Notes under the pieces: model-generated
Told to the model about the DNA's origin: nothing
What the model saw: the letters and a program-made list of their open reading frames with translations, nothing else
Database searches by the model: none
Program-made: the position numbers and the translations under genes
Origin: a virus
Taxonomy: Duplodnaviria; Caudoviricetes
Reading direction: 5' to 3' (one strand)
Length of the DNA stretch: 64,000 nt
IMG/VR virus record: IMGVR_UViG_3300017913_001833
Span: 64,001-128,000 of that record
Part shown: piece by piece, positions 14,796-47,867 of the stretch
Numbering within the stretch: the stretch's first letter is position 1
Layout of the letters: every line of letters starts with the position of its first letter

Positions 14796-15149
14796 ATGAA
14801 AGAATATGTGCAGTCTAAACTTCACAACATAAATGTAACATCTAAAGCACTTGACTATCATGGCAGTGTTACAGTTTGTAGTGAATTATTAGAAAAATCT
14901 AAAATTGATGCTTATCAAAAAGTAGATGTTGTAAATTTAAACACTGGCAACAGATGGACAACATATGCTGTTCCAGGTTCTAAAGGCAGTTTTGAACTCA
15001 ATGGTGGAGGTGCTCGGCTAGGAGAAATAGGCGACAAGTGTGTTGTGATAGCCTATCAGAGTGCTAATCAGTTCCCAGGTGCTAGTGTAATTTTCTGCGA
15101 TAAGTACAATCATATAGAGTCAACATTAGATTACCCTCAGGAGAAGTAA
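14796..15149 (+). CDS. panD: Aspartate 1-decarboxylase (pyruvoyl-dependent)
   Basis: SKLH, Y-H-G|S-V-T self-cleavage site, NR-W-TTY (Arg/Thr/Tyr active-site residues), LNGGGAR, GD..VIAY. Confidence 0.88.
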   Translation: MKEYVQSKLHNINVTSKALDYHGSVTVCSELLEKSKIDAYQKVDVVNLNTGNRWTTYAVPGSKGSFELNGGGARLGEIGDKCVVIAYQSANQFPGASVIFCDKYNHIESTLDYPQEK

Positions 15150-16082
15150 ATGAAATTAAATAAAATAGAAGGTTTTGGTAACCTCGGTGTTAAAATAAGT
15201 GATATTGATCTTAACACAGCATCTGATGAAGAGTTGATGGAAGTAGGACATGAAGTTCTTCATAAACTAGTTGTAGTAGTGGATAAAGAATGTGCAAATG
15301 TGCCTGTAGAAAGATTTCACTATATACAAACTCTTTGGGGTGACCCTGTAAGATCATATGCAAGTGATAGACTGAAAGAGCGTGTAGAAAAAGAGGGTTG
15401 GAGCAAACTATATCTCGAAACAGCAAAAGACATGAAAGCAATGACTAAAGATCTAAATCATTTGCCAGGCATGATAAGAGTTACAGGCATCAAAGATGAC
15501 AAGGGAAATCGCACTGGAATGTTTGCTGATGGTGAACTAGATTGGCATAGTAATCAACAAAGTGATAATGATGGACATGCTCCTTTAATTGGATTACAAG
15601 GTGTTGAAGGCACATCAGGATCTAGCACAGAATTTTTGCAAACAGTAGATGCATTTAATGAATTAGATAGCGACACTCAAAGTGAAGTTGATCAATTAAT
15701 TGCAATACACAAGTTTGAAAAAGATCGTGTTAGTAGAGGTACAAGTGATTCACAAGCACTTATTACAAATCTACAACTTGTACCAGAAGATAATGTTGAA
15801 ATGAAAGTTACAGTGAAAGCACCTAATGGCGTAAAAGGTATGCATTTTCCATGGACAAGTATTGTAGGCTTTAAAGATTACACACAAGAAGAATTTGAAA
15901 AACTATATAACTATCTTGTAGAACACCTATGGCAAGACAAATACGTTTATAAACATCAGTGGCAAGATGGTGATATTGTATGGATGGATCAGATAGTAAC
16001 ATTACATAGACGTCCTGGTAACGATACAAGCACAAGACTATTACACAGAATGTGTAGTAACTGGAGCAAAATGAGTGTATAA
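15150..16082 (+). CDS. TauD/TfdA-family Fe(II)/2OG dioxygenase with non-canonical HxN
   Basis: GVKISDIDL, LDWHSNQ, GSSTEF, HQWQDGDIVWMDQIVTLHRR, RLLHR. Confidence 0.8.
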   Translation: MKLNKIEGFGNLGVKISDIDLNTASDEELMEVGHEVLHKLVVVVDKECANVPVERFHYIQTLWGDPVRSYASDRLKERVEKEGWSKLYLETAKDMKAMTKDLNHLPGMIRVTGIKDDKGNRTGMFADGELDWHSNQQSDNDGHAPLIGLQGVEGTSGSSTEFLQTVDAFNELDSDTQSEVDQLIAIHKFEKDRVSRGTSDSQALITNLQLVPEDNVEMKVTVKAPNGVKGMHFPWTSIVGFKDYTQEEFEKLYNYLVEHLWQDKYVYKHQWQDGDIVWMDQIVTLHRRPGNDTSTRLLHRMCSNWSKMSV

Positions 16083-16770
16083 GATAAAGTTAGATGAAAC
16101 ATGGCATGTAAATTTACTTGACAAATTATTAGAACACGGACTAATAATTGTAAAATGCAATGCAAGTGTTTCTCTAGACGACTTTAAATTATTAGGTAAA
16201 AGATTAGGCAAGCCTTTAATTGCAAAAAAACATACACTAGATGAAGATAGACATGTACAGTATGTAAGTGACAAAGGTTTGTTTAGCAATGATGATGTTG
16301 ATTGGCATAACGACTGGAGTTACGGTGAAGGAAATTATTTCGGTACAATGTTATACAACAATAAGAATGGTCATTTAAGTACAACTGATTTTATTGATAT
16401 GCGTAAAGCATATGATGACTATCCTGATAAAGAATTTTTACATAGAACAGAAGGAACTTACTTTCCCCCACAATATTTACACGAAACTTGCTTTACACCT
16501 AGAATGTTAAAAATTTTAGAAAAAGCAAAAGTAACAAGGAAGTTTGCACATTTACATCATGCTACAGGTGATCACGTTATGTATATTTCTCCAGGTACAT
16601 TACAGAATGACATAGATGTAAATAGTTTAGTTGAACATTGTGAAAAAGACATATACGAACATCACTGGCAAAGCAATGATATTTTAATTTATGATAATAT
16701 TAGATATATGCATAGACGGCATGCATTTGAGGGAGAAAGAGAATTATGGCGAACCCAATTCTGGATCTAA
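16075..16770 (+). CDS. TauD/TfdA-family Fe(II)/2OG dioxygenase
   Basis: DWHND, TDFIDMRKAY, HHWQSNDILIYDNIRYMHRR, RELWR. Confidence 0.82.
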   Translation: MYKIKLDETWHVNLLDKLLEHGLIIVKCNASVSLDDFKLLGKRLGKPLIAKKHTLDEDRHVQYVSDKGLFSNDDVDWHNDWSYGEGNYFGTMLYNNKNGHLSTTDFIDMRKAYDDYPDKEFLHRTEGTYFPPQYLHETCFTPRMLKILEKAKVTRKFAHLHHATGDHVMYISPGTLQNDIDVNSLVEHCEKDIYEHHWQSNDILIYDNIRYMHRRHAFEGERELWRTQFWI

Positions 16771-17471
16771 GCACTAATTTTAAATTACGTTCTATTTTAT
16801 TGTTTAATCATTTACTAGCCATTTATGCGCTAATATATCATTTTAACTTTGGGCTACTTGCTCTATCATATCTATTAGGTTTCTTGCTAGGAGGTATAGG
16901 TATAAGCATAGGATATCATAGATACTTTGCACACTATAGTTTTAAGACAAACAAATTTTACAAATTAGTGTTAACTGCAATAGGACATTTTTGTTCTGTA
17001 GGTAGTGCAATTACGTGGGTTGGTATACACAGAGATCATCATGCTCATAGTGATACAAAAGAAGACCCTCACAGTCCTATATACAATGGTTGGTTAAGAA
17101 CACTAGTGCATGTATGGGAAAAGAATACGATTAATCCAATATATGTAAGACATTTGTTAAAAGATAAAACACTAAAATTTCAGCATAGATATTACTTTCA
17201 TATTTTGCTAGGAGCAATAATAATCAGTTTGTTATTGTTAGGACCAGTAACTACAGCATACATTTATAGTATTCCTGCTATTCATGTATTCTACGCAACA
17301 GGAATTGTTAATAGTATTAACCATTGGGGCGGGAAACCAAACAACATTCCTTTACTAAACATTTTTACGAGCGGCGAAAGTTATCATGCTAATCATCATG
17401 ATAATGTTGCCAATTGGCGCTTTGGATCGTTTGATCCGATGGCTCCTATTATAAGGTTAATCAAAGAATGA
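16746..17471 (+). CDS. Membrane fatty-acid desaturase (delta-9/DesC-like)
   Basis: His boxes HRYFAH, HRDHH, HANHH; DPHSP; NSINH; hydrophobic segments. Confidence 0.88.
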   Translation: MANPILDLSTNFKLRSILLFNHLLAIYALIYHFNFGLLALSYLLGFLLGGIGISIGYHRYFAHYSFKTNKFYKLVLTAIGHFCSVGSAITWVGIHRDHHAHSDTKEDPHSPIYNGWLRTLVHVWEKNTINPIYVRHLLKDKTLKFQHRYYFHILLGAIIISLLLLGPVTTAYIYSIPAIHVFYATGIVNSINHWGGKPNNIPLLNIFTSGESYHANHHDNVANWRFGSFDPMAPIIRLIKE

Positions 17472-18376
17472 AATATTACGAACAAAGACCAGAAGAAAAT
17501 ACATTCAAAGTTATATTTGTAGATCTCACACATAGATGTAACATGGATTGTTTCAATTGTTATCTGCCTAATAGAACAATACCAGACATGGACGAAAACA
17601 TGTTATACGATGTTTTAGAACGATTACCTGAAAGAACTTATATAAGACTTATAGGTGCAGAGCCTACTCTACGCAAAGACTTAACTGATATTATAAGAAA
17701 AGTTTTACACTATGGTCATAAGCCTAGTGTCACTACAAATGGATTAAAATTAGCAAGTTTAAAATATTGTCAAGAACTACGTGATGCTGGGTTGCGTATG
17801 GTATTACTAAGCATGAATGGTGCTGACGAACAGAAGATATATGAAAAAATAGATAATCATAGCCACGCACATGATCTTAAAATGCAAGCATTAGAAAATT
17901 GTTTCAAAACAAAAGGCTTTATAATCAACACAGGTACTATTATCGCCAAGGGTGTGAACGAACATACACTTAGAAGGCAAGCAGATATTGTATCAGACCT
18001 AGCAGAAAAATATAAGCCAAGAGTGAAACCAGTATTACGTGTAAAAAACATAGGCGACCTAGGCCGTTACATGCAAGGCAACACTATGAGCTTTGAAGAA
18101 TTAGTAGATGTTGCAAGCAATCAGTTAGGTATACCCAAAAGTACAATAATGGCAGAACGTGTAGAAGCAGGCACAAATAAAATTACTACAAATAATTACG
18201 GAGAAAGTTATTTGTTTGAATACAAAAACGTATATGTAAGATTAATCAACTGGAATGAAGAAGATGATCTAAACGACAGTGGTATAAATGGAAGCAAAAA
18301 CAGAGGACGTCTTACTGAAGATGGTATGATAGCACCTTGTTGGGAGCATATAAAACTAAATGAGTACGGTTACTAA
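17468..18376 (+). CDS. Radical SAM enzyme (MoaA-like core, no C-terminal auxiliary Cys cluster)
   Basis: CNMDCFNC, GAEPTL, TTNG. Confidence 0.85.
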   Translation: MKYYEQRPEENTFKVIFVDLTHRCNMDCFNCYLPNRTIPDMDENMLYDVLERLPERTYIRLIGAEPTLRKDLTDIIRKVLHYGHKPSVTTNGLKLASLKYCQELRDAGLRMVLLSMNGADEQKIYEKIDNHSHAHDLKMQALENCFKTKGFIINTGTIIAKGVNEHTLRRQADIVSDLAEKYKPRVKPVLRVKNIGDLGRYMQGNTMSFEELVDVASNQLGIPKSTIMAERVEAGTNKITTNNYGESYLFEYKNVYVRLINWNEEDDLNDSGINGSKNRGRLTEDGMIAPCWEHIKLNEYGY

Positions 18377-18974
18377 ACTAGATCAAACGCACAAAGGTTT
18401 ATTTAACAATTTTGTAAATGCAGAAATAGCACAGAGAAATTTGCATTCAGATCCCTTGTGGCAAAATATTTTGTTTATTGAACCAGATAGAGATATATTT
18501 GCCATAATAGAAAATGAGAATATAAAAGCATGTATGGCAGTTGAATACATCCAAACAATGCCTTGGTGTATACACAACACATTTATTATGCATTATGAAC
18601 TAAATGCTTTCACTGGAATCAAATATACAAAAAAATTATATGAGCATGTTTTAAATTACGCTGAAACTAAAGGTATATGGAGCCATTGGTATGCAAGAAC
18701 TGACAAAATAGATCAAGCATTAAAAAGTGAAAAATATGAATATGAAGGAATAAAACAAATGTCAAGATATGGAAATATGTTGGCGAAAGTTATAGGTGAT
18801 AGATATACTATTGCAGATAGAGCATATGTCAAAGCAGGACATTTAACAGGAATACCTCTATACGATAGGCTAATGATAGGCAAACCACTTCCATATGATG
18901 TAACACTACGGCAGATAACTATTAAACAATCAGCAGTAGCAGAAGGTTTTGGCGAGCGTATTACCTATGGCTAA
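18360..18974 (+). CDS. Hypothetical protein, possibly GNAT-like
   Basis: IFAIIENENIKACM...LYEHVLNYAETKG pattern resembles a GNAT topology; weak. Confidence 0.5.
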   Translation: MSTVTKLDQTHKGLFNNFVNAEIAQRNLHSDPLWQNILFIEPDRDIFAIIENENIKACMAVEYIQTMPWCIHNTFIMHYELNAFTGIKYTKKLYEHVLNYAETKGIWSHWYARTDKIDQALKSEKYEYEGIKQMSRYGNMLAKVIGDRYTIADRAYVKAGHLTGIPLYDRLMIGKPLPYDVTLRQITIKQSAVAEGFGERITYG

Positions 18975-20106
18975 CATATTAATAAATTATCAAAGTTCAA
19001 GTCTAAGACATACAACTCAAGAATTAAACGAGCATAATCTATATTCATGGAGAGTGCTTAATAAAGATTTCACAAAACGCACTGCTAGAGAAATACATCC
19101 TAGCTTTATTGATAATATTGACATATATGATGACCCTAGACCTATTGTTGCAAAAAAGATCAAAGCCTATATGGCAGAAAAAAATATTGATCTAATTTTT
19201 CCTTTGTACAATGATATGATGTTGCCTTACTTGTATGACAAAGTAGGCATAACTAAGAAACAGGCTAGTATTTTATCAAACAAAGAATACTACAGTAAAT
19301 TAGCCCGCCAATTGCATATTCCTGTGCCTAAAACTTATACCAACGTCCATGATGCTACATTTCCTATAATTGCTAAGCCAGTTAATGGTACAGGCAGTAT
19401 AGGCATAAAGGTCTTAACTGACTTTGATGATTTTGCACAATTTGTATCTGGCAAAGACTATCAGCATAATGATTTAGATCAATACTACATCTTCCAAGAA
19501 TTTTTACAAGGTAAGACTGTAAGTTGTGCAGGTAGGATTGTAGACGGAGAATTGCTTTATGATATATCATATGAAATAGAATCAAGTGCTTTACCTTATA
19601 GAGCAGAGACTGGATTTATCTTTTCTGCTGATATGGATCATGATAGTACATTACAATATTATATAGAAAAACTAGTTAAAGGATTAGGCTTAGATAACTG
19701 TTGCTGGATGGCTGACTTTTTATACAGTGATGGCGAATACTATTTGGTTGACTTTAGTGCCAGGCTTAGCACCAGTGCTCAAACACTTATTAAATATAGT
19801 GCTAATGTTGACTATAATAAAATTGTTGTTGATAGTTTACTATACAAAGACAAAACAAAAGTAGACTGCAAAAAAAGTGTAGTGTATAGGCATTTTAATT
19901 TACCAATGAGCGAATACAACACTGATATAGATGAGTGGCTTGTTGATGAAATACAATTACCTGCATACACTACATACCAAAATAGGATAGACATGTTGGT
20001 ACAATATAATGGTTACGCAATAACTAGTGCAGAATCATTAGCAAAAGCAGAACATAAGCATAAAAAAGTAGTTCAAACTTTAGTAAAATCTCTTAATGTA
20101 ATATAG
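18967..20106 (+). CDS. ATP-grasp ligase
   Basis: NKEY..KLA, IPVPKT, FPIIAKPVNGTGSIGI, IFQEFLQG, ADFL...LVDFSARL. Confidence 0.85.
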   Translation: MANILINYQSSSLRHTTQELNEHNLYSWRVLNKDFTKRTAREIHPSFIDNIDIYDDPRPIVAKKIKAYMAEKNIDLIFPLYNDMMLPYLYDKVGITKKQASILSNKEYYSKLARQLHIPVPKTYTNVHDATFPIIAKPVNGTGSIGIKVLTDFDDFAQFVSGKDYQHNDLDQYYIFQEFLQGKTVSCAGRIVDGELLYDISYEIESSALPYRAETGFIFSADMDHDSTLQYYIEKLVKGLGLDNCCWMADFLYSDGEYYLVDFSARLSTSAQTLIKYSANVDYNKIVVDSLLYKDKTKVDCKKSVVYRHFNLPMSEYNTDIDEWLVDEIQLPAYTTYQNRIDMLVQYNGYAITSAESLAKAEHKHKKVVQTLVKSLNVI

Positions 20107-20777
20107 TCGGGGCGCAGATTTTTTGTGACTTTATTATCCAATCTATTGTAACAAACAAACAATACAGTCCTGTCATCATTGCTTAAATTAGCGTCACTAG
20201 CATGTAGAGTATTGGCATGCATTACTATGCAGTCTCCGGCATTAGCCACCAGCTGTAGGGCTTTATACGCTGTTTTAGACGCCATTATTCCAAGGTTTTC
20301 GTCCGCACTATGTTTAATAGTCCATGAATCTGTTTCGAATTTTTCAACAGGTAAAGTATGTGATTCTGGCAATATTTGCAATGGTCCATTATTGTCATGC
20401 ATATCATCTAATATATACAGTACACTTATAGCATGAGGATTCGGCATGCCATCCATATTATGCCAATAAGTGTAATCGCTATGCCAAGCAAACTCTCCGC
20501 CTGTTTGTGATTTTTTATAATTGAAATGACACTGGTGTATGTAAATATCATCACCTAATTGTTCTTTGATATATGGTATTGCAGGATTGTCGTATAGAAA
20601 ATCATTTATTATTTCACTACGCCAATGCGGAGCAAATATGCTTCTAAGACTACCGTTGTTTTCTAGTATGTAAGTGTCATCAGCAGTACTGTATTCTAAA
20701 CGTTTTGCTTCTGCTTTAAGTGGTGTGGGATCAAAAATTCTTTGTAGAATTTCAAAGTCTTTATTCATGCAAGCCAT
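20073..20777 (-). CDS. PhyH-family Fe(II)/2OG hydroxylase, ectoine hydroxylase-like
   Basis: FAWHSDYTYWHNMDGMP resembles the EctD signature; NGPLQILPESH; AGDCIVMHANTLHAS..N.S...R. Confidence 0.8.
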   Translation of the reverse strand: MACMNKDFEILQRIFDPTPLKAEAKRLEYSTADDTYILENNGSLRSIFAPHWRSEIINDFLYDNPAIPYIKEQLGDDIYIHQCHFNYKKSQTGGEFAWHSDYTYWHNMDGMPNPHAISVLYILDDMHDNNGPLQILPESHTLPVEKFETDSWTIKHSADENLGIMASKTAYKALQLVANAGDCIVMHANTLHASDANLSNDDRTVLFVCYNRLDNKVTKNLRPDYITLRDFTKV

Positions 20778-20796
20778 TCCAAGTCAGTAGTAAAAG

Positions 20797-20825
20797 TATT
20801 TATTGATAAATATATTTAGGAGACA
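20797..20825. promoter_or_regulatory. Back-to-back divergent late promoter cores plus RBS
   Basis: TATTTAT-TG-ATAAATA (20797-20812), then TATTTAGGAGACA. Confidence 0.65.
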
Positions 20826-20829
20826 TGAT

Positions 20830-21204
20830 ATGAAAAAAGTTACCGTTAAATTTACTTCAGCTACAGATGACATTGAAACATTTGTCACTGGGAAATTTGA
20901 TAGCCTAGATGATGCAACTTTAGCAAGTCTGCATTCAACAATAGGTACAAACACAACTAATGGAAATATTTGGTTAAGACATTATTGCATTGAAGGTAGT
21001 CAAGCTCATATGATTTATATCCTAGATGATGCTGATGCAGTGACAGCAGTACAGCCTGCTCTAACACTAATGGCAGGTATTGAAGGATATGTTGAAACTG
21101 TAACTGAAGATATGACTTTTGATGAATTCAGTGCTTATGCAGCAGATCACAGAGAAACTGAAATCGTACATGCACGTAAAACTGCATTAGATGAGGCTAG
21201 TTAA
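20830..21204 (+). CDS. Hypothetical acidic protein (124 aa), probably late-expressed
   Basis: AGGAG RBS and late core upstream; no enzyme motif recognised. Confidence 0.75.
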   Translation: MKKVTVKFTSATDDIETFVTGKFDSLDDATLASLHSTIGTNTTNGNIWLRHYCIEGSQAHMIYILDDADAVTAVQPALTLMAGIEGYVETVTEDMTFDEFSAYAADHRETEIVHARKTALDEAS

Positions 21205-22041
21205 TAGCTCTTTAACTTCTATTTCGTAAACACCATTATACAGTAATCTTACATCTTCAATACTAGAAAATACCTGTTCCATTATAGGAGATTCTTCTAG
21301 CATTTCCCATCCTGTATATTTTTGTCTAGGAACAAAATTATAATTAGTAGAATAAAGTTTATGCTTGCTAGTCCGTGTGCTTAGTTTACCCGGACGTTGG
21401 TTGTTAACAAGTTCTTGTATTATAGGATCTCTCGCGAATGCAACTACCATTTCGGGAGTGTAACGTAAAAAGTCTGGTGTGCCGTCTATGTTGTTTATTT
21501 CATACCAACGGTTATAAGAATTTACTCTTTCAGTTTCTTGCCATTTCCATATACCGTCATAATTTTTGAAGTACGGTTCACCATTGGCCATAATCACAGT
21601 CCCAGACACTTTAGTAATACCTTTCATAACAGGAATCATTTGATAAGCGCAACATTGAGCTTTGTGTGCAATGTCTTTAAATTCTCCGCTGTATACTAAA
21701 TCTTCAACATCAACATTTATTACTTGTGGAGTAATGCCATTAATTTTACAAAAATCATATGCATAATTTGTATCATGCTCGTTCCAGTGTCCGTAATCTA
21801 TTATTGCTACATCAAATTGTATGCCTGCAGACTGGAAAACTCTGATCATAAACTCGCTGTCAATACCTCCGCTAAATAGAATAGTAAGAGAGTGTAGTGC
21901 AGTTTGCTCAACAAGTTTTGCGGATCTGATACATTCATTAGTAAATGAATCTATTATATTGTTTTTACACTTGTCCAAATGAACTGTCCAGCTACTGCCA
22001 TTACCTGATTGTTTGAAATAATTATTATAAGAAAGATCCAT
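21187..22041 (-). CDS. PP-loop (adenine nucleotide alpha-hydrolase-like) ATPase/amidoligase
   Basis: LTILFSGGIDSE PP-loop; PRQKYTGWE C-terminal motif. Confidence 0.7.
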   Translation of the reverse strand: MDLSYNNYFKQSGNGSSWTVHLDKCKNNIIDSFTNECIRSAKLVEQTALHSLTILFSGGIDSEFMIRVFQSAGIQFDVAIIDYGHWNEHDTNYAYDFCKINGITPQVINVDVEDLVYSGEFKDIAHKAQCCAYQMIPVMKGITKVSGTVIMANGEPYFKNYDGIWKWQETERVNSYNRWYEINNIDGTPDFLRYTPEMVVAFARDPIIQELVNNQRPGKLSTRTSKHKLYSTNYNFVPRQKYTGWEMLEESPIMEQVFSSIEDVRLLYNGVYEIEVKELLTSLI

Positions 22042-23420: not shown

Positions 23421-23421
23421 C

Positions 23422-26852: not shown

Positions 26853-26857
26853 GATAA

Positions 26858-26864
26858 TATTTAT
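26858..26864 (-). promoter_or_regulatory. Late promoter core, probably leaderless transcript
   Basis: Minus strand reads GATAAATA-TTATC-ATG. Confidence 0.55.
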
Positions 26865-26871
26865 CCTGGTT

Positions 26872-41519: not shown

Positions 41520-42598
41520 TCATCGCTCCATTGTGCTTTATATGGATCAAATTCTATACCGCACTTTTCAGAACATACTGATAATTTGCCTTCTTTACAA
41601 CTAGACAAACTCCAACCTGATTGAATGTTGTCAAATATACCTGTTGCAAAAACTTTATCTAGTCCTTGCTTTGCATTTAGATTTTGTTTGCCGCCGATGT
41701 TTTCTATATAACGCCATATAGGTTCTATTGTAGGATCTTTATGGTACCATTTGTACATACGTGTAGCAGTCCAACAGCAAGGCAGTGCTAAGCCTTCTGC
41801 TGTTATAAACAAACTACCTTCTTCTTTTACTTTGCACTTGATAGGTACAGCATCGTAATAGTTTTGCATACTACCATACTTGTCTAACAGTGCATCTTGC
41901 TTGTTACGTGTTTTGTTTTGATATTTCTTAGCAGGCTTTTTAATAATTTTTGCAGTTTCACCTTTTTTACTTTTTGCTTGGTGTTCTTCTTTTTTATCTT
42001 TTTTTGCTGTAACAAATCTGTCAGTCTTTTTTGCAATAAATCTTTCAAACCCTAATTCGTTGGCAAATGCTTCTGCTTGTTCAACTTGATGTTGATTATG
42101 TTCAAACACAAGAAAATCCCAACGAGCTCTTCCACCTGCATTTATAAAAGAACGCATACTGCGTTCTACATTGTCCCAAACCACGTTCTGCCTGTATATG
42201 TGGTTAGTATCCCTAAGCCCGTCCACACTAAAAATAACAGCACCCATCCTACCATAGACTTGGGCCAGTTCTGTCCACCACGCTTCATCTCTTGCTCCTG
42301 CATTTGTATTCATGCTTAACCACATATTTGGATTATGCTCACGGAAATATTTGAATATCTCTAATGTATCTCTTGCAATTATAGGATCTCCTAAGTTGCC
42401 GCACATAAACATAGTTTTAAGTTGTGCTACAAACTCAGGTTTGAATATACGTTTACAATCTTCAAGTGATAGTTCATCAAGATTGATGTGTGGATTAACA
42501 CCTTCGCCATTCATGTTACGATCACACATAGGACATGCCGCCTGGCAGTTTTGTGTAACTTCTAAATGTATTGCTCTTATATCTTCATAATTATACAT
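41516..42598 (-). CDS. Radical SAM enzyme with C-terminal twitch/SPASM domain
   Basis: CQAACPMCDR, GNLGDP, NTN, VDGLRDTNHIYR, PCC...CSEKC. Confidence 0.9.
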   Translation of the reverse strand: MYNYEDIRAIHLEVTQNCQAACPMCDRNMNGEGVNPHINLDELSLEDCKRIFKPEFVAQLKTMFMCGNLGDPIIARDTLEIFKYFREHNPNMWLSMNTNAGARDEAWWTELAQVYGRMGAVIFSVDGLRDTNHIYRQNVVWDNVERSMRSFINAGGRARWDFLVFEHNQHQVEQAEAFANELGFERFIAKKTDRFVTAKKDKKEEHQAKSKKGETAKIIKKPAKKYQNKTRNKQDALLDKYGSMQNYYDAVPIKCKVKEEGSLFITAEGLALPCCWTATRMYKWYHKDPTIEPIWRYIENIGGKQNLNAKQGLDKVFATGIFDNIQSGWSLSSCKEGKLSVCSEKCGIEFDPYKAQWSDE

Positions 42599-43100
42599 TG
42601 TGTATCCTATTATTTACAAGCCATGCTAGTTGATTCCAACTAGCAATATACTTACCTGACATTATTTCATCAATAACTATAAAAGAGTCTATGTCTAACA
42701 GTTTTAATTTTAGATCATGTGTGAACACTAAATTTTTTAAGTACATGTCTTGGTGCATAAAATATTGTCCTTGAGGCAAATTTTCATGCGAGAATTGTAT
42801 GCAGTCTGTGTAAATTTGACAAAAAACTTGCAGTGCTTCTGCAATATTTTTATTAGGTATTTCATACTTGTCTGGGTAATCTAACAAACATTCTACAAGA
42901 GTGCAATATGGTCTAATCTTTTTCATACTATACTGTGTAGGACTTTCCCAAGTAATTACTGGTACACAATATTCTTTATCCTTGCTAAACTTTTTGTAAA
43001 GTTCGAAGTTTTCTTTTGTAAACGTACCGTACTTTAATTCTTTGCTTACAAAGTTCTTACCATGATACAGATTTGATCTAATAAATTCTTGTTTAATCAT
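42591..43100 (-). CDS. Small kinase-like protein (protein kinase-like/Kdo-WaaP fold)
   Basis: HQDMYLKNLVF catalytic-loop-like and LLDIDS DFG-like motifs; short N-lobe. Confidence 0.55.
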   Translation of the reverse strand: MIKQEFIRSNLYHGKNFVSKELKYGTFTKENFELYKKFSKDKEYCVPVITWESPTQYSMKKIRPYCTLVECLLDYPDKYEIPNKNIAEALQVFCQIYTDCIQFSHENLPQGQYFMHQDMYLKNLVFTHDLKLKLLDIDSFIVIDEIMSGKYIASWNQLAWLVNNRIHNV

Positions 43101-43317
43101 TGTATAATAATTTTATATCTTTCCCAGGTCCTGTTTTGCTAGGAAGATCTCCGTATTGTTCTATGTACCAATCAATAACAGCCTTGTACCAATTTTGGCT
43201 GTTGTGATGTGCCTGCTTATTGAACTGAAAAATATTATTGTTGGTTGCTTGCATTGTGCTCAGGGCTCTTGCACTTTCTTGTTGCAACTGCCTAAGTGTT
43301 AAATTATTTAAGTCCAA
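43093..43317 (-). CDS. Small hypothetical protein (74 aa)
   Basis: Overlaps both neighbouring genes, suggesting translational coupling. Confidence 0.7.
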   Translation of the reverse strand: MDLNNLTLRQLQQESARALSTMQATNNNIFQFNKQAHHNSQNWYKAVIDWYIEQYGDLPSKTGPGKDIKLLYND

Positions 43318-45868
43318 TTCTCATATACCTTGTGTATTGTTCTAATTCTAATTCTCCTGTAAAGTATACTTCACTTAAAGGAGACATTTCAGCAAAATGC
43401 AAACTATCCTTTACACAGTTTACATGTTCGTCTATAGCAACGTAATCGTTGCTCTGTAAACATATAAGTTTCCCTTTTGGTATTTTATCATACCATTCTG
43501 CAAAGTTTTCGATGTGTTCACAACTTGTATTGATAATGGTGTTAGGTGAGTCTTTGCAGTTTTCTATATCGCCATTGCCTTTAACTGTTGTATAGTTATC
43601 AACAATATAATTAATATCCATTATGTCTTTTGTTTGTGCCTTGAATTTCCAGCCATCTTTTAAATGTTGGTTAAATGTTTCTGCAATCTTCCATACGTTA
43701 TCGTCTATGTCAAAACTACGTATCTTATCAAACTTTATATTTGCTTCACTAAACATAGGCACTATTGTAGCATACCAACCAGCACAAATAAAAACGGTAC
43801 CAAGATCTAAGTCTAACTGTTTAAGTGTATCCACTAACCATTTTTTACTTTTTATTTGACCACGACTAAAACAATCCATATCAATATTGCTATCTTGTAA
43901 TTTTTTAAGAGCAGGTACAAACAAACTATTTGTATGTTTTTCTAACACACGCCATAGTGCATTTTTGTCATTTTGCAATACAACCTTAAATTCATCTTTT
44001 ACTTCAGGCAATAATCTCGACAAACTGTAAAAATTTTCTTCAATTACTGCTTTACGCAAATCAACGTTTGAATTTGCAAGTCTGAATATACTGTGCATAT
44101 TCTTTTCTACTACTGCTTTACGTAATTCTTCATTGTTTGCTATTTTAAAAACACTGCTTAAATCTCTATCATTATACAAACGTCTTACATTGCTAACACC
44201 TTCGTACATGTATTCAAATCTGTCAAGTAAGTCTACAATTTCCTGCGCCTTTATTTCAGGTTGTGCTACTTTTTCTTGCGGATAAGCAATATCAAATTGT
44301 TGTCTAAGCCATTCGAAATCATTTATTAGCCTAAGATCAGACCCCCCAGAAAGGCCAAACTCCATACCAGCGGTAGCGCCTGCCAAAGCGTATTCCCCAA
44401 AAGGTCTATCGTGTCCCACGGTTGTCCAAGTTTTAAGTCTTTCATCTGTTTCTCCTGTTTTTTGTCTATCAATTACTTTACTACTTAATTTTGCACATTC
44501 TCTAAATGCACTTTTCCAAGTTTCAAAAGGTCCTGTGTTAAATGCTGTAATATTACTAACAACTTTGATAGGCTTAAAATGTCTGCTTATGCTTGTTGTC
44601 ATATCTGGACGAGATGTGTCCATATCAATTGTTGCTTGTCTTGGAAATAGTTTTATGCCACCATATCCATATTCTAGGTCATTGATAGGATTGACACTAC
44701 GCCATACTTTTACGTAGTTCTTTTCGTGTTCTGGTGATACATAATCAAAATGAAAGTCTTCTGATATTACTGCATCGCCGTCAACGATCCATATAAGATC
44801 AGTTTTACATAGTTTTGCCGCTTCAATATGTGCTTGGTGAATACCTGTTACTCCGTCTACACGTTTTGCACGAGGGAACCTATCTAACAATGCTTGATAA
44901 TTTTCATCAGCATTAGGTTCATTGTATGTAATCATTACAATGTCATATTCTTCATTTTTATTAGGCTTTTTATAGTAGTCATTTAGCACACGCTTAGGTG
45001 GTGTGTATAAACTTTTAAAAAACTTGCTTTGTTCTTCATCATACCATTCAACAGGAATATCTATTTGGTACCTTAGCGTTTCACCTAGTTCTGTTATTTT
45101 GCTATAAAGTTCTTCTGGTGGTATTTTACTGTATGTTTCTTCCCACATACGATTGAGTGTTTCAAAATCACGCACATTTACATAATCCCAATTAGTACAC
45201 ATTGTTTTATATGCACCTTCTCTTGCACCATATATAGCCCACAGGCCGTTATCAACATCACTACCAACTGTTTGCCATATACGGAGTCTGTCAAGATTCT
45301 TTTTAGGTATTCTGCTTGCATCGTCTGTACGCAAGCCTTCAAGCAAACACATTTTTACACCTTCACGAAAACCTGCACGCCATGCTTGTTGCGGTGTAGC
45401 ATTGTTGTGTACAGTGCTGTATGTTTTGTTTATCTGCAAGTATTCGAGCCCCCAGCAAAAATCAATACCAGCAGCAACGTTTTCAGGATCTGCATTTTCA
45501 TGTGTCTTCATATTTTTTACAAGTTCGGTTGGCCAACACTTTATACCACCGTTTCCGTATACAAGTCCGTTGATGACATTGTAACCACTCCAACTAACTA
45601 CGCATTTACTAAGATCAATATCATCCCTGAAATATAACTCTTCGTCTATAAATCCGTCTATTACTTTGTTGTCACCATCGATAGTTATAAATCTATCTGT
45701 TTCTGCTATATTTGCACAGGCCTTATGTGCAGCATCACTGCCTTCTACTCCATGCACACGCTTTGCCCAAGGAATACGCTGTAATAGGTCATAATAATTT
45801 TCCTCAGCATTAGGTTCATCATAACTGAGATAAATTATATCGTAATCTTTTACTTTGAATGTTGCCAT
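43304..45868 (-). CDS. Fusion of two GT-A-like glycosyltransferase domains and a class I SAM-methyltransferase-like domain
   Basis: Duplicated D-I-x3-Y-x-EPNA-x-ENY...RV-x-GV-x-G...AH...DGD...GGIK...W-x2-FRE; helical LRKAV repeats; C-terminal FSRGQIKSKKWL, CAGWY, FDID, INTSCEH. Confidence 0.75.
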   Translation of the reverse strand: MATFKVKDYDIIYLSYDEPNAEENYYDLLQRIPWAKRVHGVEGSDAAHKACANIAETDRFITIDGDNKVIDGFIDEELYFRDDIDLSKCVVSWSGYNVINGLVYGNGGIKCWPTELVKNMKTHENADPENVAAGIDFCWGLEYLQINKTYSTVHNNATPQQAWRAGFREGVKMCLLEGLRTDDASRIPKKNLDRLRIWQTVGSDVDNGLWAIYGAREGAYKTMCTNWDYVNVRDFETLNRMWEETYSKIPPEELYSKITELGETLRYQIDIPVEWYDEEQSKFFKSLYTPPKRVLNDYYKKPNKNEEYDIVMITYNEPNADENYQALLDRFPRAKRVDGVTGIHQAHIEAAKLCKTDLIWIVDGDAVISEDFHFDYVSPEHEKNYVKVWRSVNPINDLEYGYGGIKLFPRQATIDMDTSRPDMTTSISRHFKPIKVVSNITAFNTGPFETWKSAFRECAKLSSKVIDRQKTGETDERLKTWTTVGHDRPFGEYALAGATAGMEFGLSGGSDLRLINDFEWLRQQFDIAYPQEKVAQPEIKAQEIVDLLDRFEYMYEGVSNVRRLYNDRDLSSVFKIANNEELRKAVVEKNMHSIFRLANSNVDLRKAVIEENFYSLSRLLPEVKDEFKVVLQNDKNALWRVLEKHTNSLFVPALKKLQDSNIDMDCFSRGQIKSKKWLVDTLKQLDLDLGTVFICAGWYATIVPMFSEANIKFDKIRSFDIDDNVWKIAETFNQHLKDGWKFKAQTKDIMDINYIVDNYTTVKGNGDIENCKDSPNTIINTSCEHIENFAEWYDKIPKGKLICLQSNDYVAIDEHVNCVKDSLHFAEMSPLSEVYFTGELELEQYTRYMRIGLK

Positions 45869-46374
45869 TATTGCCTTGTGTGTTTAAATGTGTATGCAGG
45901 ATTGTGCATGTACAAACTAATGTTTGATGTATCTACGTCATATTCTATATTTTGTGATGCTTCTTGTAACATAAAATGCATTGTATTTAAGAGTGCATAT
46001 GGGTTATTCTTTTCAGTTACGAATATATTCACAAGTGTGTTGTTATTTGCAATGTACTGTTTATATTCTTCATCACCTTGCACTTGCAAAGTAATTTTAT
46101 TTTTGTTTTGTACAAATTCTACATAATTTTCTGTTTTTACATCTGTAGGTACAGAATATATATTTTTATTGCTAGGTACTTCTAATTGATTTTGTTTGAA
46201 TACATATTCGCCTTCATACAATTCTACATGCCAATTGATAAAATTTTCTAAGCCGTCCTCAAACTTACGTCCAAGCTCATCAGTAATTGCTACACTAACT
46301 GCATTTTCTTTTTGTGGACTTATACTTGTAACAAGATTTGTTGCAGGATCAAAGTTAACGTAATACATCTTCAA
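45868..46374 (-). CDS. Hypothetical protein
   Basis: 168-aa ORF; TAATG coupling to the GT fusion gene. Confidence 0.65.
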   Translation of the reverse strand: MKMYYVNFDPATNLVTSISPQKENAVSVAITDELGRKFEDGLENFINWHVELYEGEYVFKQNQLEVPSNKNIYSVPTDVKTENYVEFVQNKNKITLQVQGDEEYKQYIANNNTLVNIFVTEKNNPYALLNTMHFMLQEASQNIEYDVDTSNISLYMHNPAYTFKHTRQ

Positions 46375-47095
46375 ATCCTTCTATGTAATGCACTATCCTA
46401 TTTTGTAAAAAATTGCCAATAAACAATTTGTTGTCAACAAAATGTATATCTTCTGGTAAATCACAATCATGCACCCTTGGTTTCAAATGAACAAAACCGA
46501 TATCATACTCTGTAATACTATAATTTAAAATATGTAATGCAATACTAGTGCTTATATCAATACTTGCCCAAGTTTGTGTTTTATAAGGAGCAAAAGTTGC
46601 ATAATATCCTTGCCAATTGTTGTGTACATCTTTAAGCGTATCAAAAAACTTACTTGCTTTTAGACTTTTCTTAAAATAGTACATGCCTACATAAGTGTTA
46701 GGTAATCCATTACCAATGACACTTTGCCTATAGTAAGAATTATGCACAGGTGTATTACGATATGTATAAACTTTTGTAGTGAACCATAAGTCTTCGTTAC
46801 TAAGCAAATCAAAATATTCATTCATATCTACAGGACAAAACATATCTACATCCATAACAATAGTTTCATCATAAGGAGATACATCATATGCATTTATTCT
46901 GTTGTAGATCTTCCAATTACCTTCACTGTTAGGCACATGGATTATGGTGTCAAAATTTTCACTGTCTACTATATCGCTAGTTACAAGTGTAATCTTAACA
47001 TCACCATTAGTTTTGATACTACGTGCAAGTATTTCTGCTTGACGCACATAATTGATAGTACTGTTTTCAGCAAATAAAACTACACCTCTAGTCAC
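46355..47095 (-). CDS. GT-A (GT8-like) glycosyltransferase
   Basis: RGVVLFA, SPYDETIVMDVDM (DxD), YYFKK, HLK, VHY. Confidence 0.7.
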   Translation of the reverse strand: MTRGVVLFAENSTINYVRQAEILARSIKTNGDVKITLVTSDIVDSENFDTIIHVPNSEGNWKIYNRINAYDVSPYDETIVMDVDMFCPVDMNEYFDLLSNEDLWFTTKVYTYRNTPVHNSYYRQSVIGNGLPNTYVGMYYFKKSLKASKFFDTLKDVHNNWQGYYATFAPYKTQTWASIDISTSIALHILNYSITEYDIGFVHLKPRVHDCDLPEDIHFVDNKLFIGNFLQNRIVHYIEGFEDVLR

Positions 47096-47867
47096 TTATC
47101 ATCTCCGTTAGTGCAACTTTATTCATAATATGAGTATTAAGGCCACGTGTGTTTACAACAAAGTTGCCTTGAGATATATCTAAATTATAAACAGAGTCTG
47201 AATCAAAACTTGACACAAGTGGATCTGGTAATGGGCATGGCCAATCTGTAGTTGTATAACCATTCAGCATGTGTATCGCAATACTAAATGCAAAGTCATT
47301 CCTAAACTTTCGATTGCCAATGCTATACAGCATACGATAGTAAGTCCAGTTGTTTTGTATATGTTCAACTAAATTAAAGAATATCTTTGTTTTAGGATTC
47401 TTGTTAAAATAAAATACTGTAGCCCAATACATGTCTATGCCATGTTCTGCTAAACGTTCTACAGTTTTATCTGAGCGTTCATTTATATCAGTATATGTTT
47501 TGTTAATTAGTAAATCTTTTCCGCTTTCAAACACGCTAGACAAACTTTTGTTCTTAATAATAAAGTCTGTGTCCATGACTAGTGTGTTTTCATAGGGTGT
47601 AAGATCCCAACATTTACACCTGTCAAAGTTTAACCAAACTATTTGTTCACCTGCAATTTTTTTGACCTGTCTACTGTGTAGATTTACATTGATAATCTTA
47701 TCAAACGGTCCGGACTTAAAACTTGTATTTGTAACTAAGCTCACAGGCAAAGACATGTGCTTTTTAATTTGTAAAGCACAATGTTCAGCAAGTTTCAAAT
47801 AGTTAACTTTAGGTTTAGAAAAGTTTACAACATCTTCTTGTATCGCAAAAAGTAAAACACCATTCAA
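47088..47867 (-). CDS. GT-A (GT8-like) glycosyltransferase
   Basis: NGVLLFA, TPYENTLVMDTDF (DxD), YWATVFYF, FRNDFAFSIA, HIMNK; paralog of the previous gene. Confidence 0.7.
   Translation of the reverse strand: MNGVLLFAIQEDVVNFSKPKVNYLKLAEHCALQIKKHMSLPVSLVTNTSFKSGPFDKIINVNLHSRQVKKIAGEQIVWLNFDRCKCWDLTPYENTLVMDTDFIIKNKSLSSVFESGKDLLINKTYTDINERSDKTVERLAEHGIDMYWATVFYFNKNPKTKIFFNLVEHIQNNWTYYRMLYSIGNRKFRNDFAFSIAIHMLNGYTTTDWPCPLPDPLVSSFDSDSVYNLDISQGNFVVNTRGLNTHIMNKVALTEMISD

Follow-up and report, generated by a model that had tools for sequence, protein, structure and literature searches.

Gene content of the island

The window analysed here is a 64,000-nucleotide stretch (positions 64,001 to 128,000) of IMG/VR record IMGVR_UViG_3300017913_001833, which derives from an uncultured marine Rak2/GAP32-like jumbo phage. 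Positions 14796-47867 of the window hold a 33-kb block of 38 open reading frames (ORFs) of 117 to 854 amino acids (aa), plus a conserved 74-aa ORF. An earlier note had described about 36 consecutive genes, nearly all enzymes; the block is present as delimited, with 38 ORFs and the overlooked 74-aa ORF, and many of the named families were borne out, but 13 ORFs have no family assignment. Enrichment for tailoring enzymes in the block is far above chance and recurs in relatives.

Eleven intact radical SAM (rSAM) genes, the number first proposed, start at positions 17468, 24631, 30149, 31933, 34054, 36009, 37440, 38468, 39409, 40458, and 41516. All 11 contain CX3CX2C, and nine score above the Pfam gathering score. 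Pfam also bore out PanD (E value, 1.6e-28), two desaturases (both FA_desaturase, with three His boxes and transmembrane segments), two nitroreductases, and an ATP-grasp protein. The two predicted PP-loop ATPases both carry SGGxDS, with Pfam scores under the cut-off, and the three predicted glycosyltransferase (GT) genes were recovered as two GT8/glycogenin-like genes (46355 and 47088) and one with two GT-A domains (43304). The count of about 10 Fe/2OG oxygenases was inflated: three are firm (two TauD, one PhyH), and four are weak leads (26872, 28275, 28772, and 29488). Two GNAT-like proteins and an SGNH-like protein found no HMM support. As first stated, the island contains no scaffold synthase (NRPS/PKS) or exporter.

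The island lies, as described, between a fibre gene and tail genes. The fibre-like gene on the left (13564..14748, + strand; PHROG tail fibre E value, 2e-8) has homologs bordering the island in relatives G001, G002, and G005. The conserved right flank (48232..63864, − strand; PHROGs and synteny) begins with 48232 and continues through three fibre proteins (49134, 50671, and 52587) and 54618 to a giant structural protein of the virion, >2870 aa long (55252-63864+). The late-type motif ATAAATA stands on flanking fibre genes, 38 nt upstream of 13564 and upstream of 48232, 49134, and 54618. Putative sigma70-type promoters, all called as motif matches, precede the three main enzyme operons: TTGACG-N17-TATACT before the panD operon (14761..14789, + strand), TTGACA-N17-TATAGT before core rSAM 3 (31322-31294, − strand), and TTGACA-N17-TAGTAT before a 109-aa gene (48228-48200, − strand). 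The window contains 13 sites of the class TTGACA-N16-18-TAnnnT versus 5.6 expected, a number reached by none of 100 shuffles.

Three variable cassettes, characterised by Pfam and motifs, fill the left part of the island. Cassette A (14796..20106, + strand) encodes PanD (14796), two TauD-family proteins (15150, with HSN replacing HxD, and 16075, with HND), a membrane desaturase (16746), an rSAM (17468), a protein of no assigned family (18360), and the ATP-grasp protein (18949). IMG/VR yielded no close relative of the ATP-grasp protein, which, like PanD and rSAM 17468, is missing from all three fully compared relatives. Cassette B (20073..24042, with no single strand assigned) encodes the PhyH dioxygenase (20073-20777, − strand), a PP-loop ATPase with SGGIDS (21187-22041, − strand), and four ORFs of no assigned family (20803, 22009, 22710, and 23422), of which 22710 and 23422 are paralogs. 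Cassette C (24026..30294, − strand) combines a nitroreductase (24026) and a class-B-like (B12-type) rSAM (24631) with a membrane desaturase (26100) and five ORFs of no assigned family (27705 and the four weak 2OG-oxygenase leads). It shows 64 to 82% identity to one related contig (L030/L104) and is patchy elsewhere.

Two further variable cassettes consist largely of rSAM genes. The first (31359..36016, also with no single strand assigned) holds a nitroreductase (31359, + strand), a paralog of rSAM 30149 (31933), a PP-loop ATPase with SGGADS (33089), an N_Twi rSAM (34054), and an ORF of no assigned family (35360). In the related loci L008 and L027, the counterparts of 34054 and 33089 are joined as one 830-aa gene. 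The second (37440..41519, − strand) contains three rSAMs with a C-terminal PCC...C auxiliary type (37440, 38468, and 40458) and one of N_Twi type (39409); its identity with relatives lies between 25% and 91%, and loci differ in their gene set. BLAST clearly marks 37440 and 40458 as paralogs of 38468 and 41516 (1e-28 to 1e-45).

Four GT-A-type domains and a SAM-methyltransferase fold stand at the head of the operon leading into the rSAM array. Its first gene, just beyond the coordinates of the earlier note, encodes the 109-aa protein (47864..48228 including the promoter, − strand), followed by two paralogous GT8 (glycogenin/LgtC-type) genes (46355-47095 and 47088-47867, − strand), which keep the same position in G001, G002, and G005. 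Their joint profile matches glycogenin (E value, 1e-4) over a stretch that begins in the nucleotide-binding region at the N terminus and extends through the DxD motif 'LDTD'. A 168-aa protein of no assigned family follows (45868..46374, − strand); a ~190-aa protein fills its slot in relatives.

Domain mapping and AF2 models divide the next product, an 854-aa fusion protein (43304..45868, − strand), into a GT-A domain (aa 1-300), a second GT-A domain (aa 300-548), and helical repeats with a class I SAM-methyltransferase fold (aa 549-854); the protein carries a DxD motif ('VDGDA'). The model of aa 300-548 (pLDDT, 89) matches GT-A transferases by Foldseek (E value, 1e-4) and superposes on B4GALNT1 (VIA) with a Z score of 11.6 and an rmsd of 2.7 over 139 residues. 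The model of aa 549-854 (pLDDT, 85) matches SAM-methyltransferases at an E value of 1e-7. Relatives and Bdellovibrionales encode these parts in separate genes. The 74-aa protein (43093..43317, − strand) has a TTG start overlapping the stop of the 854-aa gene. It lacks Cys, is conserved end to end, and shows 66 to 82% identity in most of the related phage loci extending this far (67 ORFs). Worldwide it forms 61 representative clusters, in one of which (P0247) it is joined to the C terminus of a GT-A domain. Next is a 169-aa protein found in some relatives only (42591..43100, − strand); the kinase-like character attributed to it comes down to weak ABC1 similarity, an atypical kinase likeness (Pfam E value, 0.007, under the cut-off).

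Conserved core, relatives, and a bacterial counterpart

Three rSAMs, all on the − strand, form a core with 60 to 90% identity over >200 viral contigs. Core rSAM 1 (41516..42598), with a C-terminal auxiliary Cys motif, shows 60 to 73% identity in relatives, where it invariably follows the 74-aa gene, either immediately or after a single intervening gene, and 40 to 45% in Bdellovibrionales. Core rSAM 2 (36009..37421), with an N-terminal twitch-type auxiliary-cluster domain, shows 80 to 86% identity in 206 IMG/VR contigs, matches 2144 metagenomic clusters, and has orthologs at 55 to 60% identity in ~30 Bdellovibrionota species. Core rSAM 3 (30149..31288) shows 77 to 90% identity in related phage loci and 58 to 65% in Bdellovibrionales chromosomes. 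The adjacent fibres reach 35 to 56% across relatives, versus 60 to 90% for the core rSAMs, which points to a functional core under strong purifying selection.

The relatives' capsid protein shares 70 to 76% identity with Rak2/GAP32/Phosso-type jumbo phages. The island occupies the same locus in one complete 382-kb relative and two ~250-kb contigs, so it is phage DNA, and misassembly or a host contig is ruled out. Island size across relatives is 26 to 54 kb, and 46 loci yield 413 rSAM ORFs in 123 families, 83 of which are confined to one or two loci. Conserved fibre flanks around variable content had been proposed as the mark of a hypervariable island, and both were found in related phages; surface-glycan loci show this pattern. 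Not all of the island varies, however: a strongly conserved backbone in fixed order (two GT8 genes, GT-A/methyltransferase, the 74-aa gene, and three rSAMs) runs through >200 contigs. The islands of three relatives contain 118 ORFs, including 36 rSAMs, three UDP-glucose/GDP-mannose dehydrogenases, two DegT sugar aminotransferases, and one NDP-sugar epimerase/dehydratase. An A-type Fe-S carrier is encoded by the present genome and two relatives.

Such great differences in content among relatives would also suit an island with no single pathway, a recombination hotspot gathering unrelated auxiliary metabolic genes that each affect host metabolism separately (lipid desaturation, beta-alanine supply, Fe/2OG hydroxylases, and assorted rSAMs). 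Relatives lack counterparts of the left cassettes (PanD and ATP-grasp), the island contains several separate promoter-like sites, and desaturases and Asp/Asn hydroxylases recur as stand-alone auxiliary genes of marine myophages. Both are mentioned in passages of PMC7029224. We consider this account distinctly unlikely: the fixed-order backbone spans >200 contigs and the same set co-clusters in Bdellovibrionales chromosomes, genes overlap or abut as in a coupled operon, and fusions (rSAM/PP-loop, GT-A/GT-A/methyltransferase, and GT-A/74-aa) argue for functional coupling.

In Bdellovibrionales, chromosomal clusters bring together the three core rSAMs and the GT-A and methyltransferase domains; the 74-aa protein is missing from these loci. 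GT2 is the commonest non-rSAM neighbour family of this core; a Bdellovibrio isolate (L125) has three GT2 genes and a gene for a DUF2142 membrane protein next to it. A TSP_3-repeat surface-type protein lies beside the core in seven loci, and no Wzx flippase was found near the core cluster in five Bdellovibrionales genomes.

This bacterial setting, beside GT2 and membrane-protein genes, bears on DNA hypermodification, in which the island would extend the 7-deazaguanine/DpdA locus at the window start or serve another base-modification route, with QueC-like PP-loop ATPases and with transferases and rSAMs making a sugar- or amino-acid-decorated base. The window has a QueE-like gene at 4884-5948, 21187 shows a weak QueC match (E value, 4.7e-4) along with SGGIDS, and three QueC-like matches occur in relatives' islands; known base hypermodification pathways include phage GTs, ATP-grasp enzymes, and an amine supply of the PanD type. 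Beyond the core being common to bacterial chromosomes, the QueC matches are under the cut-off, neither PP-loop protein has a solved relative that could be found, and PP-loop 33089 is joined in L008 and L027 to an array rSAM, not to deazaguanine genes. The island also lies ~9 kb from the deazaguanine genes and is fibre-linked in every relative, which makes this route very improbable.

Proposed function

We judge, with roughly even confidence, that the block is a hypervariable, fibre-linked glycoconjugate-tailoring island. The earlier note had proposed that the enzymes decorate an existing macromolecule; a glycoconjugate is the best-supported form of that idea, given the two GT8 genes, the two GT-A domains, the methyltransferase fold, the relatives' nucleotide-sugar genes, and the GT2 neighbours in Bdellovibrio. 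The N_Twi profile (seven members, including 36009, 34054, and 39409) adds to this, as its N-terminal domain can be aligned with the twitch domain of the carbohydrate-oxidising rSAM BtrN. The island is of the kind named 'host recognition cluster' (HRC) in marine T4-like phages. For the analogous island of pelagimyophages, passages of Zaragoza-Solas et al. 2020 (PMC7029224) propose host O-chain modification or host-surface change, which we also count in favour.

We infer the substrate class, chemistry, and target as follows. The conserved core (the GT8-like pair, the GT-A/GT-A/methyltransferase polypeptide, the 74-aa accessory protein, and the three SPASM/twitch-type rSAMs) would build and tailor the glycoconjugate, the transferases putting together a sugar-containing structure in the cytoplasm. 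The rSAMs may perform C-H chemistry on sugars or nucleotide-activated precursors (epimerisation, dehydration, oxidation, or C-methylation), and the methyltransferase, oxygenases, and ligases may contribute further decorations. Cassettes between and beyond these anchors (rSAMs, PP-loop ATPases, Fe/2OG oxygenases, nitroreductases, membrane desaturases, and the PanD/ATP-grasp set) would be interchangeable, and their exchange would alter the final structure between phages. The product most likely goes to the infected cell's envelope, as an LPS-type glycolipid, or to the phage's own fibres. We slightly prefer the envelope because of the two integral-membrane acyl desaturases, the GT8 genes, a family that includes LPS-core transferases, and the sigma70-type promoters on the three main enzyme operons, in contrast to ATAAATA on the flanking fibre genes. 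Against that promoter contrast, the late-type motif also stands on three island genes, 20073 (PhyH, 26 nt upstream), 26100, and 31359.

Several observations weigh against the glycoconjugate reading. None of the 11 rSAMs matches a characterised sugar-modifying family above cut-off, and SPASM/twitch rSAM families are best known for modifying peptides or proteins. In the window's own island the analysis identified no nucleotide-sugar enzyme, flippase, polymerase, or ligase, and GT2 adjacency is limited to some Bdellovibrionales loci. The GT-A fold match is moderate (TM, 0.35 to 0.40), and this fold also covers nucleotidyltransferases. Some island genes, such as the desaturases and PanD, may be unrelated auxiliary metabolic genes.

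An alternative is protein or peptide maturation of a RiPP-like kind, in which the SPASM/twitch rSAMs would crosslink, epimerise, or methylate the neighbouring phage fibre proteins or a small phage protein that the GTs then glycosylate, as modelled by the S-glycosyltransferases SunS and ThuS. Both are among the GT-A fold matches, fibre genes adjoin the island, the TSP_3-repeat protein accompanies the core in the seven loci, and the top PDB sequence matches of the N_Twi profile are TvgB (8vpo) and SkfB. Sub-threshold NCBIfam matches are mostly peptide maturases (PapB, CcpM, SkfB, StsB, YhhB, DynA, and WgkB), but these lie far under the family cut-offs and span the shared rSAM core only. No leader/core-type precursor was found; the genes abut, and the sole small ORF is the 74-aa one, whose lack of Cys, conservation throughout, and absence from bacterial clusters do not suit such a role, its fusion tying it to a transferase rather than to a peptide precursor. 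Pfam detected no RRE/PqqD, peptidase, or exporter among the island ORFs, and the relatives' nucleotide-sugar enzymes point to sugars. Overall, peptide maturation appears unlikely, and glycoconjugate tailoring is retained as the best explanation.

Comparison with known systems

The rSAM-SPASM RiPP clusters (such as those for sactipeptides, ranthipeptides, and PQQ) resemble the island in their tandem SPASM/twitch-type rSAMs and in a small conserved ORF beside the first rSAM. Unlike them, the island lacks a leader/core precursor, RRE, peptidase, and exporter, and its small ORF is free of Cys and also found as a fusion with a GT-A domain. Virion-decorating glycosylation clusters (mycobacteriophage capsid and tail, Megavirinae fibril sugars, and chlorovirus capsid glycans) use cytoplasmic virus-encoded GTs and sugar-tailoring genes next to structural genes, vary in content by clade, and need no export machinery. 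The island resembles these clusters in its gene content; to our knowledge, none of those systems includes an rSAM array.

Genes 34054, 36009, and 39409 belong to NCBIfam NF033640 (N_Twi_rSAM; twitch domain-containing radical SAM protein), a named family with no assigned function, scoring 212, 429, and 203 bits, respectively, over a cut-off of 170. As in that family, a Cys-rich domain at their N terminus precedes the CX3CX2C core; the other eight island rSAMs fall outside it. The earlier description of the system as undescribed was too strong, given two precedents. The marine T4-like genome TARA_ERS488813_N000010 (Nishimura et al. 2017, PMC5332604) has 12 rSAM genes and an A-type Fe-S carrier, but there the rSAM genes are mentioned in the context of Fe-S cluster supply only, with no locus analysis or function. 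Passages of PMC7029224 describe hypervariable fibre-linked islands with glycosyltransferases and rSAM cassettes in pelagimyophages. The HRC of marine T4-like pelagimyophages and cyanomyophages is, like the present island, large and non-syntenic and lies by a giant VrlC-type structural gene and tail fibres; its mean size in pelagimyophages is 44.6 kb according to the same passages. They do not describe the three-rSAM/GT-A/methyltransferase/74-aa core or its Bdellovibrionales counterpart. The present phage belongs to a different, Rak2/GAP32/Phosso-type lineage, and compared with the HRC as presented in those passages its rSAM array is far larger, with 11 genes here and 5 to 13 per 21 kb in relatives.

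The island of enzyme genes at 14796-47867 is a real and striking feature whose enzymology is unexplored, and there is about an even chance that it serves as a hypervariable island for glycoconjugate tailoring, built around a conserved core of GT-A domains, a methyltransferase and three radical SAM (rSAM) enzymes. Genes are named below by their start positions in the window.

Genome context

The source contig is linear and 146 kb long (CheckV completeness, 39%; window, bases 64001-128000). Thirty-eight ORFs were counted in 14796-47867, plus a conserved 74-aa ORF at 43093-43317(-), which the earlier note lacks. A megablast search of the island and its flank against 50,697 phage records gave no match, and none of the isolated phages is close at the DNA level. 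The conserved ATPase of the phage shares 50% identity with its PA5oct counterpart. Large related contigs, one of which (G001; 381,886 bp) is rated complete, carry a T4-type Gp23 capsid gene, and their capsid protein shares 70-76% identity with those of Phosso, Vibrio 2.275.O, GAP32, and Serratia BF. The capsid identity and the related large contigs therefore place the lineage in a marine Rak2/GAP32-like jumbo phage group.

G001 and two related contigs of about 250 kb each, G002 and G005, carry the island at the same locus as in the window, with a fibre-like gene and ATPase/vWA genes on one side and the GT8 pair, three fibre genes, gene 54618, and a giant virion protein on the other. The giant flank protein matches phrog_10938 ("virion structural protein"). 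The island spans 39, 54, and 26 kb in G001, G002, and G005, respectively, versus 31 kb here. The earlier note had proposed a synteny comparison with related phages, which bore out conserved structural flanks around variable content of 26-54 kb in four genomes. Even GC content and this shared synteny, seen in four large contigs that are independent of one another, exclude both a misassembly and a host fragment.

Conserved core and variable content

With rSAM gene 36009 as the query, IMG/VR yielded 206 contigs (80-86% identity), and metagenomes, Tara included, yielded 2144 protein clusters. Gene order is fixed over the loci: GT-A gene(s) and a methyltransferase gene, the 74-aa gene, rSAM 41516, variable genes, rSAM 36009, variable genes, rSAM 30149, and variable genes. 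Identity over related loci is 66-82% for the 74-aa gene, 60-73% for rSAM 41516, and 77-90% for rSAM 30149; the core rSAMs equal the best-conserved replication genes in conservation and far exceed the neighbouring fibres (35-56% identity). Each 21-kb locus holds 5-13 rSAM-motif ORFs (median, 9; 46 loci). The 413 rSAM ORFs from these loci, which come from 46 of the 206 contigs, formed 123 clusters at a threshold of at least 50% identity; three clusters are near-universal, and 83 are confined to one or two loci. The left third of the island, including PanD, ATP-grasp, rSAM 17468, and PhyH among others, is without a counterpart in the relatives compared, and no close relative of the ATP-grasp gene was found in IMG/VR. 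The possibility that the island is an unlinked collection of auxiliary genes is judged quite improbable.

The islands of G001, G002, and G005 contain 118 ORFs, 36 of which are rSAM. Sugar genes among them comprise three UDP-glucose/GDP-mannose dehydrogenases, two DegT aminotransferases, and an NDP-sugar epimerase/dehydratase, and Asp/Asn hydroxylases and methyltransferases are also present. The same islands (loci L091-L102) hold an Orn/Arg-decarboxylase-fold enzyme together with a saccharopine-dehydrogenase-type enzyme, a polyamine pair resembling the carboxyspermidine pathway, as well as an AMP-binding enzyme and a TctA transporter. These genes, like PanD and ATP-grasp in the window, may supply amines for amide decorations.

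Radical SAM genes

Eleven rSAM genes had been claimed from motifs; Pfam and motifs gave the same number, and all 11 keep the 4Fe-4S-binding CX3CX2C. Nine exceed the PF04055 gathering score of 29.5 bits, and the two that fall short of it, 37440 (24.9 bits) and 40458 (19.6 bits), have 38468 and 41516 as paralogs (BLAST, 1e-28 to 1e-45). Island-internal BLAST gave three subfamilies, namely, an N-terminal twitch type (N_Twi; 34054, 36009, and 39409), a C-terminal PCC...C type (37440, 38468, 40458, and 41516), and a third pair (30149 and 31933). The MoaA-like 17468 and the class-B-like 24631 fall outside them. The N_Twi members match NF033640 ("N_Twi_rSAM"; curated cut-off, 170 bits) over their full length, with 429 bits for 36009, 212 for 34054, and 203 for 39409; the remaining island rSAMs score at most 60 bits and match just the shared core of many NCBIfam families. 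Upstream of CX3CX2C, Cys31, Cys94, and Cys97 are invariant in the N_Twi rSAMs, and residues 7-72 of the profile (the N-terminal domain) align with the BtrN twitch domain, BtrN being an rSAM that oxidises sugars.

With tblastn, 36009 found just matches of 21-23% identity, in Vibrio K566/K567 and Ralstonia RsoM2USA, and BLAST and profile searches of the surroundings of the N_Twi-type rSAM in RsoM2USA found no GT-A, methyltransferase, GT8, or 74-aa gene. Seven aligned N_Twi rSAMs proved too divergent to serve as a genome-scan query. In two related loci (L008:12568-15060 and L027:12583-15066), homologs of N_Twi rSAM 34054 and PP-loop ATPase 33089 form a single protein of 827-830 aa, a fusion which implies that the adjacent genes in the window (33089-35376) work together. 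Outside the island, a QueE-like rSAM is encoded at 4884-5948 (phrog_2076).

Glycosyltransferase, methyltransferase, and 74-aa genes

Glycosyltransferase genes make up the right-hand end of the island. The joint profile (20 sequences) of paralogs 46355 and 47088 matches glycogenin-1/-2 (E, 1.2e-4; positions 13-102) over a stretch that spans the nucleotide-binding region and the DxD motif, "LDTD" included. Pfam gave no match to either single sequence, so the GT8 assignment is made at the superfamily level.

The 854-aa protein 43304 has three conserved parts. Residues 1-300 and 300-548 are paralogous domains, in both of which "VDGDA/N" is conserved. The AF2 model of the second GT-A domain (pLDDT, 89) matched RmlT, K4CP, GtrB, WrtF, and SunS at an E value of 1e-4 in Foldseek and B4GALNT1 in VIA (Z, 11.6; rmsd, 2.7 over 139 residues). 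Residues 1-548 are assigned to the GT-A fold with a DxD motif; we infer, rather than assign, transferase activity, because nucleotidyltransferases (IspD) score nearly equal to transferases against the domain model. A few homologs in a large protein collection have GT2 Pfam domains in their precomputed annotation. PDB-sequence profile searches with the GT-A domain or the methyltransferase domain gave no useful match, and the whole 854-aa protein as a query gave none, fold searches alone being informative; the ESM Atlas returned unnamed viral clusters and no others for the GT-A domain.

The model of residues 549-854 (AF2; pLDDT, 85) has a class I SAM-methyltransferase (Rossmann-type) fold and matches more than 500 PDB methyltransferases at an E value of 1e-3 or better (best, 1.8e-7). 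Its motif I, "CAGWYAT," differs from the canonical GxGxG, and the SAM-using aminocarboxypropyl transferase CntL and nicotianamine synthase also match. In relatives, the first GT-A domain is encoded by its own gene with additional cassettes after it; the 854-aa protein of the window is therefore a fusion created by a deletion.

The family of the 74-aa protein (43093-43317(-)) comprises 61 representative clusters, one member of which is joined to the C-terminal end of a GT-A domain; this fusion argues for a transferase accessory rather than a peptide precursor. The ESM Atlas gave no match to the 74-aa protein, and its predicted complex with rSAM 41516 scored 0.01, a value that counts as evidence in neither direction on binding. 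The sub-threshold matches of the island rSAMs lean to peptide maturases, as would suit an island for protein or peptide maturation. Such a role is nevertheless unlikely, as the sole small ORF is this GT-A-linked one, which is uniformly conserved and has no Cys, and the locus falls outside the definition of a RiPP cluster, with no RRE, peptidase, or transporter by Pfam. The 74-aa profile also matches 17 repeats of a "GDLPSKxGPG"-like segment in a 1631-aa metagenomic protein (P0251), probably a low-complexity coincidence.

Other island enzymes

Pfam assigned the PanD, ATP-grasp, two desaturase, and two nitroreductase genes of the earlier note; PanD retains its Gly-Ser cleavage context, and both FA_desaturase proteins retain three His boxes and transmembrane segments. 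The "about 10" Fe/2OG oxygenases shrank to three firm members (two TauD family, one PhyH) and four weak leads. Both an HMM match and the HxD/E...H triad were found for 16075 (TauD family, HND) and 20073 (PhyH, HSD); 15150 matches TauD (E, 6e-20), but HSN replaces HxD. For the seven further claimed members, nothing beyond weak leads emerged: lenient Pfam and PHROGs searches of 10 unknown ORFs gave just two weak 2OG leads, and hhalign against the island's own TauD and PhyH profiles gave probabilities of 56% for 28772 and 31% for 29488, with the others unsupported. The GNAT-like and SGNH-like proteins found no support, and 13 ORFs are without a family. Orthologs of 15150-16082(+) in related phages have HSN, HAN, or HCN at the HxD position, and a TauD-family paralog outside the window (G000:C1:56978-57859) aligns as H-N-A, the Fe/2OG halogenase pattern. 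To judge from these residues, 15150-type proteins may ligate the metal differently or catalyse another reaction.

Each membrane desaturase gene lies directly upstream of an rSAM gene, MoaA/Tes-like 17468 in one case (window 16746-18376(+)) and class-B-like 24631 in the other (24631-26852(-)). The sub-threshold matches of 24631 include ladderane-lipid and hopanoid rSAMs, and the two desaturase-rSAM pairs may be lipid-tailoring pairs.

Both of the PP-loop ATPases recognized by motif keep SGGxDS, but their Pfam scores are weak: 33089 has a weak match to ATP_bind_3 alone, and 21187 scored 20.2 bits against QueC (cut-off, 22), with just profile positions 4-66 covered. No PDB relatives of either protein were found. 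Their identification as QueC (7-cyano-7-deazaguanine synthase) was rejected at the family cut-off, and this shortfall weighs against DNA hypermodification, which is very improbable as the role of the island.

Putative transcription signals

The motif TTGACA-N16-18-TAnnnT occurs 13 times in the window versus 5.6 expected, and none of 100 shuffles reached 13. Sites of this class lie in the intergenic gap ahead of 47864, where the glycosyltransferase/rSAM operon begins, and in the one ahead of rSAM 30149; a TTGACG variant upstream of panD was found by eye. Eight of the 11 ATAAATA sites in the window, which include 13526(+), 49137(-), 50666(-), and 55255(-), lie 12-38 nt upstream of a same-strand gene start, mostly of structural genes. 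The motif precedes the flanking fibre genes 13564, 48232, and 49134, gene 54618, and, inside the island, 20073, 26100, and 31359. In its full form, the T4 motif TATAAATA occurs less often in the window than expected by chance. At the motif level, ATAAATA seems to behave like a late-type promoter element, and motif placement makes the main enzyme operons look like early-type units between late structural genes. Combined with the membrane desaturases and GT8, the early-type operons give a slight preference to the host envelope as the target, with virion glycosylation also plausible, given the missing exporter and the fibre linkage.

Bacterial counterpart

When prokaryotes were scanned with each species represented by a single genome, orthologs of 36009 (55-60% identity) were almost confined to Bdellovibrionales and Oligoflexia, including complete chromosomes and a Bdellovibrio isolate. 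A few further matches, of 62-85% identity, evidently stem from phage contigs binned into MAGs. Clustered in those chromosomes are orthologs of 36009, 30149 (58-65%), 41516 (40-45%), GT-A (~40%), and the methyltransferase domain (~33%), along with extra, variable rSAMs; the 74-aa gene is absent from the Bdellovibrionales loci. GT2 is the commonest family among 111 non-redundant bacterial neighbours, three GT2 genes and a DUF2142 membrane protein adjoin the cluster of the isolate (L125), and one bacterial locus has a desaturase. No Wzx flippase was found near the cluster in five Bdellovibrionales genomes. A protein of ~400 aa with thrombospondin type-3 (TSP_3) repeats adjoins the methyltransferase/GT-A genes in seven Bdellovibrionales loci (L112:4096-5364, L120:4820-6025, and five more), possibly as a surface substrate and possibly by coincidence.

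In a paralog-rooted FastTree phylogeny of 36009 orthologs, the phage sequences form a shallow clade within a Bdellovibrionota grade; transfer from Bdellovibrionota to phage is only a lead from this tree. Phage-type loci (58-85% identity), three with the 74-aa gene, also occur in bacterial MAGs (L103, L104, L105, L106, and L139) labelled Arcticimaribacter, Crocinitomicaceae, Neisseriaceae, Planctomycetota, and Gammaproteobacteria MED685. These are probably phage contigs mis-binned into MAGs and give no evidence on the host.

Interpretation and comparison with known systems

The glycoconjugate reading draws on the nucleotide-sugar genes of relatives, the alignment of the N_Twi profile to the BtrN twitch domain, and the 74-aa/GT-A fusion; against it, no nucleotide-sugar enzyme or export gene is recognizable in the island of this window, and the sub-threshold rSAM matches lean to peptide maturases. 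A bolder proposal, which we advance tentatively and consider doubtful, is that the GT-A domains, the methyltransferase fold, the three rSAMs, and more than 120 interchangeable rSAM families make up a hitherto uncharacterised radical-SAM-driven system for diversifying surface glycoconjugates, common to Bdellovibrionota and a cosmopolitan marine jumbo phage lineage. The rSAM reactions would then be directed at sugars in a way without described precedent, and by exchanging cassettes phages would rewrite the sugar structures of the host envelope or of their own fibres.

The locus holds an unusual amount of unexplored radical chemistry (413 rSAM genes in 123 families, anchored by three conserved rSAMs) and offers enzymologists a rich supply of new rSAM enzymes. 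With a glycan as the target, it would represent a new route to surface-sugar diversity and a new layer of ocean phage-host recognition; with a protein as the target, a large family of phage-borne protein-modifying enzymes. Since the core has culturable bacterial counterparts, such as the Bdellovibrio sp. isolate of L125, the question is open to experiment.

A literature search found no publication that treats the conserved core, the Bdellovibrionales version of it, or the chemistry of the core. In a marine T4-like genome, Nishimura et al. (PMC5332604) recorded 12 rSAM genes together with an A-type Fe-S carrier. Like that genome, the phage of the window (G000:C1:7742-8005, outside the window) and two relatives (G001:336710-337012 and G005:98206-98508) encode such a carrier (PF01521), with no IscU; it may serve to supply the numerous Fe-S enzymes, a point made by Nishimura et al. 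2017. The closest description is the host recognition cluster of pelagimyophages (PMC7029224), a hypervariable island that adjoins the giant VrlC gene and fibres, is rich in GT8 and LPS-type genes, carries rSAM cassettes, and is proposed to alter the host O-chain. Like that cluster as described there, the island is non-syntenic between conserved structural flanks, lies beside a giant virion gene and fibres, and combines glycosyltransferase and rSAM genes. On its other side, the pelagimyophage cluster is bounded by the neck gene gp14; in the phage of the window, that side holds a fibre-like gene and, beyond it, ATPase and vWA-type genes.
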